Virus record (IMG/VR): IMGVR_UViG_3300042934_000171
Location: 1 to 41,221 of that record
Reading direction: 5' to 3' (one strand)
Length of the DNA: 41,221 nucleotides
Source of the DNA: a virus
Below, piece by piece: positions 128 to 41,221 of this stretch. The notes below the pieces were generated by a model. That model was not told the DNA's origin. It worked only from the letters and a program-made list of their open reading frames with translations, and did not search any database. Numbering within the stretch: position 1 is the stretch's first letter; each line of letters opens with the position of its first letter. The position numbers and the translations under genes are program-made.

Positions 128-923
128 AACAAAAGGAGAGCCATACTTGAAGCTAGGTACAAAGACCTTGGCCCAACAATGGCTCCTCTATGGGGTCAAT
201 CGCAAGGTTACCAAGCGATGTGTTATGACCTTCGCTTATGGGTCAAAAGAGTACGGATTCAAAGGGCAAATCCTTGAGGATGTCATCAAGAAAGCCAAGA
301 ATGAACACAGGGGCGATATGTTTGTAAAACCTGTACAAGCTGCAGCGTACCTCGCCAAGTTGATCTGGAAGGTCATCCAGGAGGTCGTTGTCAAGGCAGT
401 AGAAGGCATGAACTGGCTTCAGAAGATGGCCCGGATGGTCTGCAAGGATGGAAATGTGGTTACCTGGGTGACTCCTTTAGGTCTTCCTATTCAGCAGGCC
501 TATATGGAAAGCAATATGGAGGTCTTCAGGTTGCGCTTTGGTGGGTCCATAAAGAGACTCTACTCATCTAAACCGAGCGGCAACATTGATAAGATCGCTC
601 AGGTTAACGGTATCGCTCCTAATTTTATCCATAGCTTGGATGCCTCACACCTTCAGCTCACAGTCCTTGAGGCATACGATAGAGGGATTCAACACTTCGC
701 TATGATACATGATAGTTTTGGGTCTCCTGTGGCCCAAGCTCAAGAGATGTTCCAGACAGTCCGCTATACCTTCCATAAGATGTACACGGAGAATAATGTC
801 CTGGAGAACTTCGCAAGAGATATGGATGCCTTTATCGATCCTAATGCAAGCCTTCCGGTTATCCCTGCTTGCGGAAGACTGAATCTTGAAACTGTACTGA
901 ATAGTCCGTATATGTTTGCCTAA
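1..923 (+). CDS. T7-like single-subunit DNA-directed RNA polymerase, C-terminal part (continues from 39411-41221)
   Basis: The open frame runs from base 3 in the same phase as 39411. Motifs present: TFAYGS, NFIHSLDASH, IHDSFG (motif C) and a C-terminal YMFA that resembles the T7 FAFA foot. Confidence 0.97.
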   Translation, partial: GTAVNLVPSDSPQDIYRSVAEKVNVLLEKDAKKGTMDEEAETTKGEPYLKLGTKTLAQQWLLYGVNRKVTKRCVMTFAYGSKEYGFKGQILEDVIKKAKNEHRGDMFVKPVQAAAYLAKLIWKVIQEVVVKAVEGMNWLQKMARMVCKDGNVVTWVTPLGLPIQQAYMESNMEVFRLRFGGSIKRLYSSKPSGNIDKIAQVNGIAPNFIHSLDASHLQLTVLEAYDRGIQHFAMIHDSFGSPVAQAQEMFQTVRYTFHKMYTENNVLENFARDMDAFIDPNASLPVIPACGRLNLETVLNSPYMFA

Positions 924-2842: not shown

Positions 2843-3184
2843 GTCATCGTATCATTCAGACAACGCAATCAAACAGACTATGTATGTCTCCGCTGCGAGG
2901 AGACCAAGGGTGCATCCCAAGATACCCTATGGAGAGCCGCTCGGAGAAGTGGGGAGCTTGATGTTCCCTTTCATTTCATCGTGCAGAAGACCGGAATAGT
3001 GGAAAACGGAAGGCCACTTGAGGCTATCGCGGGGCATAAGTACCCGCACAATGACACCACTCTATATGTCCTGGTCGATGCTGAAAACCATAACGCAATC
3101 ACAGATGCTCAAAGGAAAGCCATAGCGGACCTCTTGAGAAGCATTGAAGCGCATTTCCCGAAGGTTCAAATTGTGAAAGTCTAA
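2843..3184 (+). CDS. T7 gp3.5 (amidase_2 / T7 lysozyme)-like protein, apparently catalytically degenerate and C-terminally short; start codon unresolved
   Basis: The frame is open from 2843, directly after the endonuclease I TAATAG double stop and in the same phase. LDVPFHFIVQKTGIVENGRPLEAIAGH aligns with remembered T7 LDVGYHFIIKRDGTVEAGRDEMAVGSH. The first canonical start is GTG 2981, which lies downstream of that motif. Confidence 0.55.
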   Translation, partial: VIVSFRQRNQTDYVCLRCEETKGASQDTLWRAARRSGELDVPFHFIVQKTGIVENGRPLEAIAGHKYPHNDTTLYVLVDAENHNAITDAQRKAIADLLRSIEAHFPKVQIVKV

Positions 3185-3207: not shown

Positions 3208-4893
3208 GTGAATCGTGAAGAGTCGGAAATCATTGAGAGGCATCTACCTTGCCCGGAGTGTGGAAGCTCTGATGCACTAGCCACATATAGTGATGGGCAT
3301 ACCTACTGCTTCTCATGTAAGAAAGTCCGCAGTGGAAGCGGCATACCTTCATCAATAGAGAGAGGATCTCGCATGGCTAAAACTTCTGCACCACTTTCGC
3401 AGGACCTCCTTGTCCTTGGACCTTTGCCAGCCCGAGGGATCATGCAGGCAACTTGCGAAAAATACAGCTACTATAAGGCAACCTATAGCGGGAAGCCTGT
3501 TCAAGTCGCGTGTTATACAAACTCAGCTAATGAAGTGTTATTTCAAAAGATTAGAGGCAAAGACAAAGACTTCTTCAGCCTCGGGAAAACCCACAAGGTA
3601 TTCTATGGGCAACACTTATATAACTCCGGGAAGAAGCTAATAGTTACCGAAGGTGAAATTGACTGCCTAACGGTATCTCAGCTCCAAGACAATAAGTGGC
3701 CTGTGGTATCCCTGCCTTTTGGTGCAGGGTCTGCCGCTGAGACCTTTAAGGAAAACCTGGATTGGCTTGAAGGTTTTGAAGAGGTCATCACCATGTTTGA
3801 TATGGACAAGGCCGGGGAAGAGGCCAGAAAGTCTGTAGAAGGCTTACTCTCTCCAGGTAAACTCTACCACGCCACCTTGCCTCTCAAGGACCCTAATGAG
3901 TGTCTTGTGAAAGGCCAAGGGGAGGCCGTGAAGAAAGCCATATGGAATGCCAAGCAGTACAAGCCGGGAGGCATTGTCAATGGGGCAGACCTATGGGATC
4001 GCCTTAATGACCACAAAAAGAACACCCATGAGATTCCTTGGCCTTGGCCTGGGATTCCCCTTCAGAACCTAACCCGAGGAATCCGTAAAGGTGAGATGAT
4101 TATGCTCACAGCGGGAACCGGGATAGGGAAGTCTACGGTATTCCGAGAGATGGCCTACTGGATGGGTGTCAAATTAGACCCTCCTATGAAAATAGGCATG
4201 GTCTTCCTGGAGGAACAAAATGAAGAAACAGGTTTAGCTCTAATGTCGCTCCATGAGAACAAGCGTTTGCACCTTGAGTGGGAATCTATCTCAGCGGAGG
4301 AGCGCAGAAAGTCCTTTGAGGAGACCTTAGGAACCGGAAGATTCGTCTTCTATGACCACTTTGGGTCTATCGATGGGGAAAGCCTATTAAACCGAATACG
4401 CTACATGGTCACGGCTGAGGGCTGTGACTTTATCTTTTTAGACCATGTGTCAATCGCTATTAGCGGTCTCGCTACTAACAACGAACGGAAAGACATTGAT
4501 GTGCTCATGACTAACCTTGCCTCGCTTATACAGGAGACAGGTTGTGGCATGGGCATTATTTGTCATCTCAAGAAAACCGAAGGACAGAAGAAGTCCTTTG
4601 AGCAAGGCGCTCAGATATCCCTGGATGACCTCCGGGGTTCAGGGACCCTTAAGCAAATTCCCAATACGATCGTGGCAGGTGAGAGGGATCAACAGACTGA
4701 GGATGATCGAGCTAAGAATCTATTTGCTATCAGGCTCCTGAAGTGTCGATTTACCGGGAAGACCGGACCCGCAGGCTACTTATGGTTTAATGAGGAAACC
4801 GGAAGGCTTGATCTTATTGACGATAAGGACGCTTTCTTAGGGACTCTTGAGGTTTCCTCTAATGGAGACCTAGGTGTTCCTTCAGAGTTCTAA
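3208..4893 (+). CDS. Bifunctional primase-helicase (T7 gp4-like)
   Basis: Zn ribbon CPECGS..CFSC, TOPRIM VTEGEIDCLTVSQ, Walker A LTAGTGIGKST, Walker B FIFLDHVS, and a C-terminal Phe. GTG start follows an AGGGAGAA SD. Confidence 0.95.
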   Translation: MNREESEIIERHLPCPECGSSDALATYSDGHTYCFSCKKVRSGSGIPSSIERGSRMAKTSAPLSQDLLVLGPLPARGIMQATCEKYSYYKATYSGKPVQVACYTNSANEVLFQKIRGKDKDFFSLGKTHKVFYGQHLYNSGKKLIVTEGEIDCLTVSQLQDNKWPVVSLPFGAGSAAETFKENLDWLEGFEEVITMFDMDKAGEEARKSVEGLLSPGKLYHATLPLKDPNECLVKGQGEAVKKAIWNAKQYKPGGIVNGADLWDRLNDHKKNTHEIPWPWPGIPLQNLTRGIRKGEMIMLTAGTGIGKSTVFREMAYWMGVKLDPPMKIGMVFLEEQNEETGLALMSLHENKRLHLEWESISAEERRKSFEETLGTGRFVFYDHFGSIDGESLLNRIRYMVTAEGCDFIFLDHVSIAISGLATNNERKDIDVLMTNLASLIQETGCGMGIICHLKKTEGQKKSFEQGAQISLDDLRGSGTLKQIPNTIVAGERDQQTEDDRAKNLFAIRLLKCRFTGKTGPAGYLWFNEETGRLDLIDDKDAFLGTLEVSSNGDLGVPSEF

Positions 4894-36445: not shown

Positions 36446-36564
36446 GAAGATGAAGGGAGCAGGGCAGCTATATGGAGACAATAGTTATCAGTATAGTCGG
36501 TACGGTATTAGTAGGAATGTTCTGGAGTTTGGTAACGAGTAGGTAAATAACTAAGAACACAAAT

Positions 36565-36620
36565 AAGGCCCTCCTTAAGGAGTCCACACGGATTCCCTAA
36601 GGAGGGCCTTATTTTTTTTT
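36565..36620. terminator. Strong bidirectional-type terminator between the moron genes (+) and the repressor (-)
   Basis: AAGGCCCTCCTTAAGG pairs with CCCTAAGGAGGGCCTT (at least 13 bp), followed by T9 on + and preceded by an A/T-rich run that serves the - strand. Confidence 0.85.
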
Positions 36621-36639
36621 GTCTCAAAGCAGTTGTTGA

Positions 36640-36843
36640 CTATTTGGTCTTATGCATCCATTCGATCTTATAGCCTAGAACCTCTGCGATCTCTAAGGCT
36701 TCTCTATAGCGGAGCGTGTCATTCTGTAGTTTCTTATGAAGGTTTTGCGGTGATTGTCCCAAGAGTTCCGCTAATTCTGTGACGTTCTTATTCTCCTGAG
36801 CTAATATCACGTTAATTGTTGTCTTGGTATTCAATGGGTTCAC
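36640..36843 (-). CDS. XRE/CI-type HTH repressor
   Basis: NVTELAELLGQSPQNLHKKLQ is a classic HTH_3 pattern. The gene is divergent from a strong + strand promoter. The start is GTG 36843 or, more plausibly, TTG 36834, which follows AAAGGA by 10 nt. Confidence 0.8.
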   Translation of the reverse strand: MNPLNTKTTINVILAQENKNVTELAELLGQSPQNLHKKLQNDTLRYREALEIAEVLGYKIEWMHKTK

Positions 36844-36893: not shown

Positions 36894-36930
36894 TTGGTTT
36901 ATAAAATAAACTAATTTGTTGATTTAATGC

Positions 36931-36959
36931 TTGACACCTGGGCTAACCTGTGCTAGTAT
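36931..36959 (+). promoter_or_regulatory. Near-consensus sigma70-type early promoter (TTGACA-N17-TAGTAT)
   Basis: TTGACA at 36931-36 and TAGTAT at 36954-59, with exactly 17-nt spacing. It points into the early operon. Confidence 0.75.
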
Positions 36960-36968
36960 CAACTCAAA

Positions 36969-36985
36969 GGTTGAAATAATCAACC
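36969..36985. promoter_or_regulatory. Operator-like perfect palindrome GGTTGAAATAATCAACC just downstream of the -10
   Basis: 6-bp perfect arms. It lies at about +3 to +20 of the early promoter. More TTGAT/ATCAA half-sites occur at about 36918 and 36958. Confidence 0.55.
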
Positions 36986-37012
36986 AAATGGTTTAAGGAG
37001 GTCTACTAAAAT

Positions 37013-37159
37013 ATGAAAAAGCCGGAACTGGATGTCTACACTTTGTCAGCGAAACTCGCCTCAGCCTTAGATAACAGGGATTGGGCAGAGGTAGAGGAGT
37101 GCTTTCGCTCCCTGCTCGACCATAAGAAAGCCCTTAACACTTACAACAGTAAGAAATAA
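37013..37159 (+). CDS. early small protein (48 aa)
   Basis: ATG follows an AAGGAGGT SD by 11 nt. First cistron of the early operon. Confidence 0.5.
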   Translation: MKKPELDVYTLSAKLASALDNRDWAEVEECFRSLLDHKKALNTYNSKK

Positions 37160-37163
37160 CCAC

Positions 37164-37239
37164 GTCGAAACCTAAGGGTCTCCCTAAGAGGCCCTGACGG
37201 TCTCCTGGAGATAGCCTACCAGGACTGATGAGATAGGCT
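37164..37239 (+). ncRNA. Type II hammerhead self-cleaving ribozyme candidate, HHR-1 (predicted cleavage 37202|37203)
   Basis: In order: GUC, GAA, stem III (ACC...GGU enclosing GGGUCUC/GAGGCCC), C17, stem I (UCCUGG/CCAGGA), CUGAUGA, GAU. The tail AGGCU is complementary to AGCCU in loop I. Confidence 0.8.
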
Positions 37240-37256
37240 TAAGGAGGTTAGAGGTA

Positions 37257-37433
37257 ATGCATAAGAAACACAAAGGCTGGCTAATAGTCTCTAAGATCGA
37301 CAAGGAAACAGGGATGGAGTTCTTCTACTGTTACACACCGGATGAACTAGAGTACCCTGCGGCCCTTAGGAGCTACGAATGGGAGGCTTGCAGCCTTCAG
37401 GAAGCCCTAGACTTTATCAATAGTTGTAGATAA
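37257..37433 (+). CDS. early small protein (58 aa)
   Basis: ATG lies 8 nt after an AAGGAGGT SD that abuts the 3' end of the ribozyme. Confidence 0.6.
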   Translation: MHKKHKGWLIVSKIDKETGMEFFYCYTPDELEYPAALRSYEWEACSLQEALDFINSCR

Positions 37434-37450
37434 AAGGAGGTAGTGAACAA

Positions 37451-37936
37451 ATGAAACTATCTAAAGTCATCAACAGAGGAACTGAAATTCTATTAGTCAA
37501 GGCGTACCTATCGGACCTCAAAGGAAACTCTCAGCCGTACTTCAGCATCACCGGGGAAATTTGGGCGTATAGTCAGTCCTTAGGAAGAAAGAAAGGCAGC
37601 GACTGTATTACAGGTGGATGTATCCATGAGGAGATACTCAAGGCATTCCCTAAGCTCTCAGACCTAGTAGCTCTTCACCTCTCAGGAATGGACGGACAAC
37701 CTATGCACGCCTTGGAAAATGGATGGTATTGGTATGGAGGGACCAAGTGGCAGGAGTATCACAGGAAGAACCTTGCAGCACACCTGAGAATCACTGAGGA
37801 TCAAGCGGATGCTCTACACACTCTCCAGTTAGATAAAGTGGCGTTCGCTAAATACATAGATGAGCAGAAACCTCGATGGTCCCTAGAAGCTGCTCAGGTC
37901 ATTGACAAGTATCACCTTGAGATTATCAAAAGGTAG
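37451..37936 (+). CDS. early hypothetical protein (161 aa)
   Basis: ATG follows an AAAAGGAGGT SD. No motif that I can name. Confidence 0.7.
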   Translation: MKLSKVINRGTEILLVKAYLSDLKGNSQPYFSITGEIWAYSQSLGRKKGSDCITGGCIHEEILKAFPKLSDLVALHLSGMDGQPMHALENGWYWYGGTKWQEYHRKNLAAHLRITEDQADALHTLQLDKVAFAKYIDEQKPRWSLEAAQVIDKYHLEIIKR

Positions 37937-38021
37937 TGTCTAGCAGGGAGGTCCTGAGGGATTCCTTCAGGGCTTCAATGGTGGACATTAAAGAATAAAC
38001 CACATAAGGAGGACAAGAGCA

Positions 38022-38408
38022 ATGAAACACCGTCAGTATACCTTCACACTGAAGACTAAAGGAAGCCGTCAAGACCGTGAAATGACCGCACAGGTAGCCT
38101 TTTCCCCAGAGACGAACATGAGGACCCTGCTACAATTCACGGAGAAGCTGCAAGAGGTTTGGAAGGAAGCCATGAAAGCAACCAAGCGCGGCGATTATAT
38201 GGAGCTTACGATCTCCCGCACTGTAAACTCCTGGGACCCGCAAGAGGTTGCAAGAACTTGGAAACAGGAGGCCTTTGACTACTGGACCTTTGAGGGATAC
38301 AACGAGGACCTAGAAGGAATCTATCTGGCTCCAGACACGAAGTATACCGCAGCCGAATGCGACCTTTATCTGACTAAAAACATTTTAGAAAGTTTGGAGG
38401 GAATCTAG
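38022..38408 (+). CDS. early hypothetical protein (128 aa)
   Basis: ATG follows a TAAGGAGGA SD. The C-terminal half is acidic and aromatic. Confidence 0.7.
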   Translation: MKHRQYTFTLKTKGSRQDREMTAQVAFSPETNMRTLLQFTEKLQEVWKEAMKATKRGDYMELTISRTVNSWDPQEVARTWKQEAFDYWTFEGYNEDLEGIYLAPDTKYTAAECDLYLTKNILESLEGI

Positions 38409-38409
38409 A

Positions 38410-38481
38410 ATGACCCTCAAGGAACGCCTTTGCATCCTCTTAGTACTCACAGCCAGCCAGAAGCCCTCAGGTAATCACTAG
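38410..38481 (+). CDS. 23-codon mini-ORF MTLKERLCILLVLTASQKPSGNH (paralogue of 39228-39293)
   Basis: GGAGGGAA SD 8 nt upstream. The first roughly 45 nt are nearly identical to the second copy. Confidence 0.45.
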   Translation: MTLKERLCILLVLTASQKPSGNH

Positions 38482-38590
38482 GCCCACCTCAACACGCCAG
38501 AAGGCTGACTAAGGCTAGGTCAACCATTAGGAGCCCTCGGTCAGCCTTTGCGACAATCGAACGGATGTTCTATATTAAGGAGGAATTGAA

Positions 38591-38866
38591 ATGTTAATTA
38601 AAGGTAGTGAAATGAATTTTAAGACTCAACAAGAGGCCCTAAATAGATTTGTCCATAGATATACAAAGGATCATAAACCTGCTTGGGCAAGTCAACCAAT
38701 GCCGAATGGGGCTTCATACCCAGTTCAACATAACAGCGATAAGGAATGGTTGGAGCATACTTACTTCCACGTTACCGAAACAGGTGAACTATCGCGAAGA
38801 CATTCCTTTTGTGAATCCTTTTCAACTTGGCCTGATAATCCCGAATTAAGGAGACAGAAACATTAA
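38591..38866 (+). CDS. early hypothetical protein (91 aa)
   Basis: ATG follows a TAAGGAGGAA SD. Confidence 0.65.
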   Translation: MLIKGSEMNFKTQQEALNRFVHRYTKDHKPAWASQPMPNGASYPVQHNSDKEWLEHTYFHVTETGELSRRHSFCESFSTWPDNPELRRQKH

Positions 38867-38879
38867 TCTATATGAACAA

Positions 38880-38956
38880 GTCGAAACCTTCTGGACCTCT
38901 TTTGAGGCCCTGGAGGTATTCCGAGGGATAGCCTCCCGGAACTGATGAGACAGGCT
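38880..38956 (+). ncRNA. Type II hammerhead self-cleaving ribozyme candidate, HHR-2 (predicted cleavage 38918|38919)
   Basis: In order: GUC, GAA, stem III (ACCUUC/GGAGGU enclosing GGACCUC/GAGGCCC), A17, stem I (UUCCG/CGGAA), CUGAUGA, GAC. The tail AGGCU is complementary to AGCCU in loop I. Confidence 0.8.
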
Positions 38957-38973
38957 GAAGGAGGTCAAGAGGG

Positions 38974-39120
38974 ATGACTAGATATCAAATCATAGAGCAC
39001 ACCACAGGCCGCATTATGGGAGTCTACAGGGACCATAAGAGGGCCAGAAGGGCTGCTGATGCGTTGGACCTTAAGTACGGCAAAATCAATTATTACATTA
39101 AACCTATTGCAAGCGCCTAG
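38974..39120 (+). CDS. early small basic protein (48 aa)
   Basis: ATG lies 8 nt after a GAAGGAGGT SD that abuts the 3' end of HHR-2. Confidence 0.55.
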   Translation: MTRYQIIEHTTGRIMGVYRDHKRARRAADALDLKYGKINYYIKPIASA

Positions 39121-39293: not shown

Positions 39294-39311
39294 TTGTGAC
39301 ACAATAGGAGG
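39293..39311 (+). promoter_or_regulatory. Candidate phage-RNAP promoter P4 (ATTGTGACACAATAGGAGG), 100 nt upstream of the RNAP gene
   Basis: The 19-mer is identical to P1 at 1244. Confidence 0.65.
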
Positions 39312-39344
39312 GACAGGTCGGTTCTATAGGCCTGTCTTTCTTTT
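39309..39344 (+). terminator. Hairpin plus T-tract between P4 and the RNAP gene (attenuator / 5' leader stem-loop)
   Basis: GACAGGTC (39312-19) pairs with GGCCTGTC (39329-36), followed by TTTCTTTT. The architecture matches the hairpin after P1, but the stem sequence differs. Confidence 0.55.
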
Positions 39345-39410: not shown

Positions 39411-41221
39411 ATGGTGAATACCCTTTCGGCTACCTACGGTAAACTCTATGAGGCCCAATTAGCTATCGAAAAGAAGTACAAGCAAGGTGCCTCTGATCGC
39501 CTCGCGGCTATGTTTGAAAAGTGTGAGAAGGAAGGAAGGGCCTCCTCGGTATCCTTAGGGCAAAAACTCCTGGATCATCAATTTAAGACCGTAAAGGAGA
39601 ACATTACACTCCTCGTGGATAAACTCTTGGCACCTAAAGCAGGTCAAAAGGCAAATTATACCTATATCATTGTGGAACTGGCAGGACTTTACGAAGGCAA
39701 TCGCGAAAGGCTCCTCGATATGCTGACCTTCATTCCTTTCAGTGCTCTCCTGAGTGCAGCCCTTCAGAATCGAGCGAATGCGGGGTTTGTGTCTGCCACT
39801 CTCAGTGCTCTTTCACATATCATAGGGGCTGAGATACAAGAGGAGGCCACTGCAGACGTATTCCTTAAATCCCTTGAGGATAATATAGAAGGTAAGGTCC
39901 TGGACGGTATCAAGAAGCGCAAGGATCGTCACTATAAAACCGCCTTCCTAGACAAGACCATGAAAGGCGAAGGATTCTCAAAACTATCTTGGGATTCTGT
40001 CTCAAGAGCTTCCTTAGGTGCCAAGCTCCTCGAACTCTCCATAGAAGGCAGTGGCTATTTTGAATTAGTACACGCTAAAGGGCCTAAAGGTGATGCAGTG
40101 CTAGAGATACGGCCTACTCAATGGCTAGTAGAGGCATGGAAGGATAATACTGCTGCAGCGGTCCTTAGGGCGTACCGGGCCTGTCCTACGGTTATTCCTC
40201 CTGCCCCTTGGGAAACTGTCTTCGAAGGTGGCTACTATGGGGACCTCAGAGGAAGACAGCCTATGTTACGCTCTGAAGCCTTCAGGCAATGGCAGGGACC
40301 TTCTAATGTATACAATAAAGAATACTTGGAGAAGATATCTCAACTCGACCTCAAGGAAGTCCGAACAGCCCTTGACCACATCCAGAGGACACCTTGGGTC
40401 ATCAATAGGGAGACCTTGGAGGTTGTCCAAGCTATTATAAACCGGGGCGGCGATTTTGCAGGGATAGCGAGAATCGATGACTCACCTAGACTTCCTGAGT
40501 TGACTGGAGACTTCACTGAGGAAGACCTAAAGAAACACAAAAAGAAGCTCGCTCAGTGGCACGCAGACGAACACATTAGGACATCTAAAGCTCTTAGGTG
40601 CCTATCGATCCTAAAGGTGGCTGAGGAGTTTTCTGAATTTGATAAAATTTACTTCCCGATGAACTGTGATTTTCGAGGACGCTGCTATCCTATTCCTAGC
40701 TTCAGTCCTCAAGGTGATGATATTACCAAGGGCCTGCTACTCTTTGCGGACCCTCCAGAATGTCACAGTATGGTCGATATCGAATGGCTCATGGTGCATG
40801 GGGCCAACCTTGCAGGAGTCGATAAGGTTTCCTTTGAAGACCGTAGGCAATGGGTCAAAGATCATGAGGAGCAAATCCTGAGGTCGGCTCAAGACCCTCT
40901 TGGGTTCACATGGTGGGCAACCCTTGATGACAATTCCATCCAATTCCTAGCGTTCTGCTTTGAGTGGACAAAGTGGAAGCAATGGGAGAAGGAGCATGGG
41001 ACACCTGAAGGATTCAAAACCGGGATACCTGTGGCCTTCGATGGGACATGTTCAGGCCTCCAGCACTTCTCAGCAATCCTGAGGGATACCGTGGGAGGCA
41101 CTGCCGTCAACCTAGTACCTAGTGACAGTCCGCAGGATATCTATAGAAGTGTAGCTGAGAAAGTCAATGTGCTCCTTGAGAAGGATGCTAAGAAAGGCAC
41201 GATGGATGAGGAAGCGGAGAC
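39411..41221 (+). CDS. T7-like single-subunit RNA polymerase, N-terminal part (runs off the window and continues at 128-923; 868 codons in total)
   Basis: The frame, translated by hand, is open from ATG 39411 to the window end. YFPMNCDFRGRCYPIPSFSPQGDDITKGLL and AFDGTCSGLQHFSAILRD match the T7 RNAP palm motifs. The ORF is absent from the track because it has no in-window stop. Confidence 0.96.
   Translation, partial: MVNTLSATYGKLYEAQLAIEKKYKQGASDRLAAMFEKCEKEGRASSVSLGQKLLDHQFKTVKENITLLVDKLLAPKAGQKANYTYIIVELAGLYEGNRERLLDMLTFIPFSALLSAALQNRANAGFVSATLSALSHIIGAEIQEEATADVFLKSLEDNIEGKVLDGIKKRKDRHYKTAFLDKTMKGEGFSKLSWDSVSRASLGAKLLELSIEGSGYFELVHAKGPKGDAVLEIRPTQWLVEAWKDNTAAAVLRAYRACPTVIPPAPWETVFEGGYYGDLRGRQPMLRSEAFRQWQGPSNVYNKEYLEKISQLDLKEVRTALDHIQRTPWVINRETLEVVQAIINRGGDFAGIARIDDSPRLPELTGDFTEEDLKKHKKKLAQWHADEHIRTSKALRCLSILKVAEEFSEFDKIYFPMNCDFRGRCYPIPSFSPQGDDITKGLLLFADPPECHSMVDIEWLMVHGANLAGVDKVSFEDRRQWVKDHEEQILRSAQDPLGFTWWATLDDNSIQFLAFCFEWTKWKQWEKEHGTPEGFKTGIPVAFDGTCSGLQHFSAILRDTVGGTAVNLVPSDSPQDIYRSVAEKVNVLLEKDAKKGTMDEEAE
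41095..41221. repeat. Second copy of the 127-bp terminal overlap
   Basis: Identical to 1-127. Confidence 0.95.

Follow-up and report, generated by a model that had tools for sequence, protein, structure and literature searches.

Two type II hammerhead ribozymes in the early operon of a temperate T7-like phage

We analysed a 41,221-nt stretch of viral DNA, IMG/VR virus record IMGVR_UViG_3300042934_000171 (hereafter the window), which is a temperate T7-like podovirus. Its early region lies on the plus strand, where a sigma-70-like promoter is followed by a series of small open reading frames (ORFs), a strong hairpin and the gene for a T7-type single-subunit RNA polymerase. Two intercistronic gaps of this region each hold an element with the anatomy of a type II hammerhead ribozyme (Table 1). 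The first, HH1, had been proposed in a preliminary description of the sequence; the second, HH2, sits in another gap of the same operon and was absent from that description.

Anatomy and family membership of the two elements

Both sites follow the type II permutation, with the order 11.x-GAA-III-H17-I-CUGAUGA-10.x, stems I and III closed by loops and stem II open. In each of the three stems the core-adjacent pair is preserved, both in HH1 (G37232-C37166, U37203-A37224 and A37170-U37201) and in HH2 (G38949-C38882, U38919-A38941 and A38886-U38917). Loop I and the 3' tail are complementary over six bases in HH1 and five in HH2, as counted by a motif scan, and the core, stem I, stem II and pseudoknot of HH1 match the family consensus exactly. 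All base assignments and coordinates that the preliminary description had given for HH1 were reproduced by reading positions 37140-37260. Its placement of HH1 in the gap between the first two early cistrons, 1 nt before a Shine-Dalgarno (SD) sequence, also held: the 48-aa ORF ends at 37159, the ribozyme tail at 37239, and the SD occupies 37241-48. The type II reading itself is borne out by the invariant core, the right permutation, the intact core-adjacent pairs, and the family covariation and related-phage homologues presented below. Its suggestion that loop I and the tail form a tertiary contact agrees with Perreault et al. 2011 (PMC3088659) and with compensatory changes in the family.

The two copies are 68% identical over ~110 nt. 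Because this identity extends over the SD, the duplicated unit consists of the ribozyme together with its ribosome-binding site. In thermodynamic folding of HH1, the distal helix of stem III has a pair probability of 0.99, the proximal pairs reach ~0.5, and stems I and III are retained in both the minimum-energy and the centroid structures. The folding-energy z-score of the HH1 segment (-0.81) is not significant; we do not count this against a hammerhead because hammerhead cores and pseudoknots fall outside the energy model.

Table 1. Features of the early region of the window and hammerheads at related phage and prophage loci (L128 to L133, own coordinates)
Feature	Position	Strand	Details
Promoter, sigma-70-like	36931-36959	+	TTGACA, 17 nt, TG-TAGTAT; 10/12 consensus matches, extended -10 TG; consensus match only
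First early cistron	37013-37159	+	48 aa, without known family; stop ends 4 nt before HH1
HH1, type II hammerhead	37164-37239	+	76 nt; direct reading of 37140-37260, Rfam, R1, motif scan, same-subtype homologues
HH1 stem II 3' strand	37164-66	+	GUC (11.3-11.1); sequence reading
HH1 G12A13A14	37167-69	+	GAA; sequence reading
HH1 stem III, overall	37170-37201	+	proximal ACC 37170-72 / GGU 37199-201, 3 pairs
HH1 stem III internal loop	37173-75 / 37195-98	+	UAA / UGAC, purine-rich
HH1 stem III distal helix	37176-82 / 37188-94	+	GGGUCUC / GAGGCCC, 7 bp; loop CCUAA 37183-87
HH1 C17	37202	+	A15.1-U16.1 pair is A37170-U37201
HH1 predicted cleavage site	37202/37203	+	from hammerhead numbering
HH1 stem I hairpin	37203-24	+	UCCUGG 37203-08 / CCAGGA 37219-24
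HH1 core strand C3-A9	37225-31	+	CUGAUGA
HH1 stem II 5' strand	37232-34	+	GAU
HH1 pseudoknot	37213-17 / 37235-39	+	loop I AGCCU / tail AGGCU; sixth pair A37218-U37234 possible
SD and start of 58-aa cistron	37241-37259	+	SD AAGGAGGT 37241-48, ATG 37257; start 17 nt past HH1 tail
Four cistrons bracketed by ribozymes	37257-38866	+	58, 161, 128 and 91 aa; no known function
HH2, type II hammerhead	38880-38956	+	Rfam 35.3 bits, R1 58.4 bits, motif scan, 68% identity to HH1
HH2 stem II 3' strand	38880-82	+	GUC
HH2 GAA	38883-85	+	GAA
HH2 stem III	38886-38917	+	6 proximal pairs ACCUUC/GGAGGU, plus distal helix
HH2 A17, cleavage-site nucleotide	38918	+	not G; A15.1-U16.1 is A38886-U38917
HH2 stem I	38919-41	+	bulged A38924
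HH2 core	38942-48	+	CUGAUGA
HH2 stem II 5' strand	38949-51	+	GAC
HH2 pseudoknot	38930-34 / 38952-56	+	loop AGCCU / tail AGGCU
SD and 48-aa cistron	38957-39120	+	SD GAAGGAGGU 38957-65, ATG 38974; weak matches to DUF7336, phrog_6742
Hairpin into U-rich tract	39306-39344	+	strong, 14 bp; -20.3 kcal/mol, z -4.19; loop 9 nt
T7-type single-subunit RNA polymerase gene	39411-41221, on through 128-923	+	PF00940, E 7.6e-47; 868-aa protein P0001
L128 (Sporomusaceae bacterium FL31 prophage) hammerhead	4516-4594		R1 search
L131 (Anaeroselena agilis prophage) hammerheads	3061-3140, 3931-4010		R1 search
L132 hammerhead	4806-4879		right after ArdA; R1 search
L133 hammerheads	3353-3431, 4056-4153		either side of ArdA; R1 search

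Hammerhead_II (RF02276) is the best Rfam family at both sites. HH2 matches the full model at 38879-38959 on the plus strand (35.3 bits, E 0.0012 for the whole window). HH1 scores 24.6 bits, with an E-value of 0.0039 in a 201-nt stretch and of 0.8 when the whole window is compared with all families, a value that is weak if taken alone. Both scores lie under the gathering score of 37 bits, which is an operational annotation threshold and not a biochemical defining feature, and the default Rfam scan of the whole window at that score reported nothing. The covariance-model check that the preliminary description had proposed for HH1 thus came out positive only narrowly, with an end-to-end match (model positions 1-66) and a score below the gathering value. 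The shortfall is largely due to long insertions in stem III (26 nt in HH1, 16 nt in HH2). The Rfam alignments also mark the stem II pairs and some inner pairs of stem I as non-standard, and the pseudoknot is unscorable by the model.

Independently of the Rfam model, we used the motif scan, which required CUGAUGA, GAAA, a stem II of at least 2 bp, a stem I of at least 4 bp, an H17 other than G, and a stem III with the A15.1-U16.1 pair and at least two further pairs. It recovered exactly two sites in the window, HH1 and HH2, both on the plus strand, as compared with a mean of 0.013 sites per window in 1000 dinucleotide shuffles; the mean falls to 0.004 when the scan also demands a pseudoknot of 4 bp or more.

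A 15-mer from HH1, CTGATGAGATAGGCT, is present in 94 IMG/VR stretches. The upstream part of the hammerhead was not included in this bait, and 38 distinct sequences upstream of the 15-mer form a complete type II hammerhead: (A/G/U)UCGAAAC, a hairpin, GUC and a 6-bp stem I with an AUAGCC loop precede the 15-mer, which is the layout seen in the window. From this set we built a family model, R1, using 31 unrelated IMG/VR phage hammerheads and leaving the window out. R1 scores 59.7 bits for HH1 (E ~1e-14) and 58.4 bits for HH2 over alignment positions 1-64, while the next-best site in the window reaches 12.3 bits; these scores are partly circular for the last 15 nt of HH1, with which the training set was fished, less so for HH2, where one base of the 15-mer differs (GAC for GAU), and not circular for the upstream two-thirds of each element. 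With its filters off, R1 found no third hammerhead anywhere in the window.

In an alignment of 78 family elements, itself fitted to the model, 97.9% of the cells are paired, compared with 22-48% in controls with slid partners, and 12 of the 15 pairs show changes on both sides. Stems I and III show massive covariation. Pairing in the pseudoknot stands at 87%, changes on both sides affect 17 of its cells as opposed to 2.3 in shuffles, and its variants include GACC/GGUC, GGUC/GACC, AGGC/GCCU and GGGC/GCCC. Across this wider family stem III is free to vary in sequence and lacks an anti-SD-like character. The second copy, the motif scan, the R1 scores and the covariation together make chance untenable, and we are highly confident that HH1 and HH2 are both true type II hammerheads.

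Placement in the phage genome and recurrence in relatives

Both ribozymes lie between the promoter and the strong hairpin, with the RNA polymerase gene further downstream, a position that corresponds to that of the class I early operon in phage T7. The promoter points away from a gene for a Cro/CI-type helix-turn-helix (HTH) protein (36640-36843, minus strand) and, judging from its consensus match, would drive the early operon that holds both ribozymes. The hairpin is found between the last small early ORF and the polymerase gene, and is possibly the terminator or an attenuator of the early operon ahead of that gene; a simple terminator scan skipped it because its loop has 9 nt. The same scan found no terminator-like site on the plus strand from the promoter to HH2. 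For the proteins encoded between the two ribozymes, the only match is that of the 161-aa protein to phrog_17696 (function not known).

The position of the elements within their gaps is typical of the family. We surveyed 39 family instances, seeking a start codon within 40 nt of the tail. The end of an upstream ORF was found in 37 of them, with the stop mostly -1 to +8 nt from the first ribozyme base, and a start codon in 32, mostly 12-21 nt past the tail with the SD directly behind the tail. The corresponding values in the window are stop-to-ribozyme gaps of 4 nt (HH1) and 13 nt (HH2) and a tail-to-ATG distance of 17 nt for both.

A search of the 182-nt gap at 38409-38590 for a third ribozyme returned no notable Rfam match and a fold z-score of -0.16. 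At window 38501-38583 this gap contains a long hairpin (AAGGCUGAC 38501-09 / GUCAGCCUU 38541-49) and, 3' of it, a conserved ~40-nt stretch, GCCTTTG(C/T)GA(C/A)AATCGAAC(G/A)GATGTTCTAT, that is common to L133 (3960-4013). The stretch occurs a single time in the window and overlaps a sigma-70-like site (TTGCGA-17-TATATT, 38548-76); it may serve as a promoter within the operon or as a site of processing. The motif AATCGAACGGATGTTCTAT was considered as a repeated promoter of the phage polymerase and rejected, since it has a single occurrence in the window.

The window is circular, with a genome of ~41,094 bp: bases 1-127 are identical to 41095-41221, a terminal overlap of 127 nt. No long ORF is listed in 39.3-41.2 kb because the polymerase ORF crosses the circular junction. 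The protein set is T7-like (primase/helicase, DNA polymerase I, ligase, portal, major capsid, tail tube B, tail fibre and large terminase), and the minus strand carries a tyrosine integrase in addition to the HTH gene. The window holds no tRNA genes. A weak Rfam match to the Listeria small RNA rli56 (36542-36627, 32.9 bits with a gathering score of 47, E 0.07) falls between the integrase and the HTH gene, in ~770 nt that lack convincing ORFs, and is probably due to chance. Isolate phages are all distant, with portal identities of 51% at most, blastn of 36900-37500 against the INPHARED phages gave no match, and megablast of window positions 1-25000 gave only a chance-level match of 63 nt.

The closest RNA polymerases are those of a Sporomusaceae bacterium FL31 prophage (GCA_003990955.1; 69% identity), a JGI contig (65%) and an Anaeroselena agilis prophage (GCA_032334055.1; 51%); the RNA polymerases of further contigs show 48-52% identity. 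Since the two named bacteria harbour the nearest polymerases in their prophages, the host probably belongs to the Negativicutes, and within them probably to the Sporomusaceae. Using R1, we searched the seven phage or prophage loci with the closest RNA polymerases (48-69% identity). In four of the seven, homologous hammerheads precede the polymerase gene within the early operon, with the pseudoknot variants GGCC/GGCC, GACC/GGUC and GGUC/GACC. Both hammerheads of the Anaeroselena agilis prophage (L131) have G at the freely varying core position 7 (CUGAGGA), and their pseudoknots are GACC/GGUC and GGCC/GGCC. In two of the loci the hammerheads neighbour ArdA, an anti-restriction gene; the segments comprising ArdA and hammerheads span L133 3353-4153 and L132 4286-4879.

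The elements of the window and its relatives fall into two stem III subtypes with four members each. The HH2-type has a long stem III of the form ACCUYY.../...GGAGGU, and CUGGAGGU is invariant across its four elements. In the HH1-type, ACC(U) is followed by a purine-rich internal loop, a distal helix and (A)GGU; the internal loop is present in all four elements (UAA/UGAC, UAA/AAU, UA/GAU or A/GA), and the distal helix covaries (GGGUCUC/GAGGCCC, GGGAGCC/GGUUCCC, GCCGG/CCGGC and GCGGGGUC/GACUCCGC). The stem III layout of HH1 recurs in L133 (3353-3431), L132 (4806-4879) and L131 (3061-3140). This recurrence with a covarying helix shows that the short proximal stem III of HH1 is a conserved architecture and not a product of decay.

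Searches of IMG/VR for close relatives with the 161-aa protein and the RNA polymerase returned only relatives at 36-45% identity, and one weak R1 match, of 27 bits, was obtained in L097. Looking up exact protein matches yielded only Logan contigs at 100% identity, from which nothing can be learned about covariation, and a lineage-specific DNA pattern (GAGGCCCTG..GGT..GATAGCCT..CTGATGAGA) found nothing in IMG/VR or the JGI metagenomes. A broader pattern identified 11 hammerhead-bearing genomes in GTDB, mostly Bacillota. Dense arrays also occur. In Marinithermofilum abyssi (NZ_BMHQ01000020.1, L113 7055-7910), seven type II hammerheads are arranged head-to-tail with starts 122-146 nt apart; the spacers are too short for ordinary genes, and cleavage would free RNAs of ~120-145 nt. 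In IMGVR_UViG_3300000217_000001 (L010 3617-6707), nine type II hammerheads with many differing pseudoknot sequences are spread over ~3.1 kb, about one per small gene.

Predicted processing of the early transcript

Resemblance by chance, or ordinary hairpins between cistrons, of the RNase III site, attenuator or terminator kind and devoid of ribozyme activity, would fit the Rfam score below the gathering value, the E-value of 0.8 and the unremarkable folding z-score of HH1. Nevertheless, two same-strand sites were found where 0.013 are expected per shuffle, the independent family model gives 58-60 bits, all 11 or more invariant core bases are in place at both sites, related phages have covarying homologues, and the plus strand shows no terminator-like site from the promoter to HH2. 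We consider this explanation highly improbable and already effectively refuted. A different concern is that HH1 could be a true type II homologue that is catalytically weak or dead and acts as a structured spacer or insulator before the ribosome-binding site, HH2 being the active copy. Its Rfam score is 10.7 bits under that of HH2, and its proximal stem III has three pairs, with probabilities of about one half, against 5-6 or more in HH2 and most of the family. A dead copy, however, would be expected to accumulate core changes, whereas the core, stem I, stem II and pseudoknot of HH1 agree with the consensus at every position, and three diverged phages retain the same layout of 3-4 bp, internal loop and distal helix, the core being intact and the distal changes compensatory. 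A weak or dead HH1 is unlikely.

Cleavage might also be conditional, so that the ribozymes serve as switches. The 5' strand of stem III in HH2, ACCUUC (38886-38891), is anti-SD-like and could pair either with GGAGGU or with the downstream SD, while the internal loop of the HH1-type could bind a factor; cleavage would then permanently remove the anti-SD strand and turn on translation of the next cistron. Consistent with such a switch, the minimum-energy fold pairs HH2 38887-91 with the SD (38957-38965), both alone and in a 201-nt context, CUGGAGGU does not vary in the HH2-type, the internal loop recurs throughout the HH1-type, and regulated cleavage of phage hammerheads has been raised as a possibility (Perreault et al. 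2011, PMC3088659). On the other hand, stem III is not anti-SD-like family-wide, so this mechanism cannot be general. During transcription the stem III hairpin emerges, and is able to close, before the SD exists, the energy models leave out the pseudoknot, no ligand or protein is indicated, and common descent alone may account for the shared CUGGAGGU. We regard a switch as quite unlikely.

The reading that we favour is that HH1 and HH2, as members of the pseudoknot-stabilised type II class common in phages and prophages, would cleave in vivo and process the early mRNA. On the evidence of sequence we hold this to be very probable overall, and somewhat less so for HH1 alone. The analysis shows by anatomy and covariation that both elements belong to the class, that their placement is conserved and that they recur in the lineage; from this we infer cleavage in vivo and the fate of the mRNA.

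The early operon is probably transcribed by the host RNA polymerase. During transcription, stems III and I would fold as local hairpins, and the 3-bp stem II and the pseudoknot would then close the core, leading to self-cleavage after C37202 in HH1 and after A38918 in HH2. The cut in HH1 would leave C37202 (C17) with a 2',3'-cyclic phosphate and U37203 (U1.1) with a 5'-OH. The early transcript would be split in three: the leader with the first 48-aa cistron, a 1716-nt RNA of four cistrons (37203-38918), and a short RNA with the next 48-aa cistron. The downstream product of HH1 would accordingly carry four cistrons, up to HH2, and would not be monocistronic, as against the monocistronic-style 5' end envisaged in the preliminary description. 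Each upstream product would have the stem III hairpin and a 2',3'-cyclic phosphate at its 3' end; the downstream products would start flush with the stem I hairpin and a 5'-OH, with the SD 1-2 nt past the ribozyme tail. The ribozyme and its ribosome-binding site would act as a portable intercistronic cassette which, by analogy with the RNase III sites of T7, may uncouple neighbouring early genes from one another in stability and in translation, with no host nuclease needed.

Several points speak against this reading. Both Rfam scores are sub-threshold, R1 is partly circular at the 3' end of HH1, and HH1 has just three proximal stem III pairs of middling pair probability. In thermodynamic folding that ignores the pseudoknot and core tertiary contacts, the hammerhead fold of HH2 lies 5.7 kcal/mol above the ACCUUC/SD alternative. 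No hammerhead was found in L129/L130, L134 and L135; because three related phages are without one, the hammerhead is dispensable. The searches described above returned no relatives at 70-95% identity. The direction of any effect on stability is also uncertain, because a 5'-OH end can attract RNase J1: in Bacillota such an end can reportedly target RNA for this enzyme, as is said of glmS by Collins et al. 2007. A flush 5' hairpin should hinder RNase J1.

A broader scenario would join these elements. In a lineage of temperate T7-like phages that infect Negativicutes, a type II hammerhead and a ribosome-binding site, joined in a cassette, would have assumed the part that RNase III sites have in the T7 early mRNA, with the type II permutation selected because it alone leaves a stem III hairpin at the new 3' end and a flush stem I hairpin at the new 5' end. 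Cleavage would become conditional through the purine-rich loop of the HH1 subtype, which is conserved across the lineage, or through stem III of the HH2 subtype with its anti-SD/SD-like strands, and would be tied to how early genes are translated, among them anti-defence genes such as ArdA. We put this forward as a doubtful proposition.

Comparison with known systems

Type II hammerheads in phage and prophage operons have been known since 2011, and HH1 and HH2 add members to this class. No new kind of RNA or mechanism is revealed. The additions are modest: Rfam scores that are sub-threshold largely because of a long or interrupted stem III, a temperate T7-like lineage of Negativicutes phages with ribozymes in the early operon, and two stem III subtypes that are conserved. 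Genuine type II hammerheads with a long or interrupted stem III thus escape standard annotation with Rfam at the gathering score. The two ribozymes are placed in a complete phage genome with a clear layout of promoter, ribozymes, terminator-like hairpin and RNA polymerase gene, and the homologous ribozymes in the Sporomusaceae bacterium FL31 and Anaeroselena agilis prophages make the open question of the purpose of phage hammerheads testable there. Among the papers covered by our literature search, none linked hammerheads with T7-like phages.

The early genes of T7 are reportedly processed by RNase III at the sites R0.3, R0.5, R1, R1.1 and R1.3, as is said to have been described by Dunn and Studier; sites of this type are hairpins that are long, double-stranded and imperfect. 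Like HH1 and HH2, these sites occupy intercistronic gaps of an early operon that the host transcribes and that precedes the phage RNA polymerase gene, and cleavage of the window elements would similarly leave hairpin-capped ends. Unlike them, the hammerheads would cleave themselves, producing a 5'-OH and a 2',3'-cyclic phosphate, whereas the host nuclease leaves a 5'-phosphate and a 3'-OH. The T7 sites have no sequence or structural homology to the window elements and are a functional analogue, not a matter of membership; the conserved hammerhead core argues for self-cleavage over assignment to the RNase III sites.

The closest correspondence is with the type II hammerheads of RF02276 and of Perreault et al. 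2011 (PMC3088659), who found them to be common in bacteria, with a loop I/3' tail pseudoknot typical of the type and necessary for fast cleavage, a stem II as short as two pairs, and a mispair directly beside the core as a criterion for rejection. The window elements share the identical core and circular permutation, a stem II of 2-3 bp, a loop I/tail pseudoknot of 5-6 bp and a location in intergenic gaps of phage or prophage operons with several copies flanking genes or blocks. They differ from the Rfam consensus in a much longer stem III, in the internal loop that HH1 has 3 bp from the core, and in the swapped strands of the pseudoknot (AGCC in the loop, GGCU in the tail). Perreault et al. 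also reported that in prophages several hammerheads flank genes or short gene blocks, and proposed that they cut long phage transcripts to gene-length mRNAs. In the same study hammerheads flank ardA in Agrobacterium tumefaciens and precede it in Legionella. The hammerheads of our related loci likewise flank ArdA (L133) or directly follow it (L132), whereas the window has no recognisable ArdA and its ribozyme-flanked genes are without known function.

Activity in cells has been observed for comparable elements. In Desulfovibrio vulgaris, cyPhyRNA-seq detected in vivo cleavage by three type II hammerheads located close to phage genes (Olzog et al. 2021, PMC8782182). They belong to another host phylum and other loci, and are likened to the window elements in type and gene neighbourhood. 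They too are of type II and lie beside hypothetical or phage-like genes, and they illustrate that predicted elements of this kind are active in cells.

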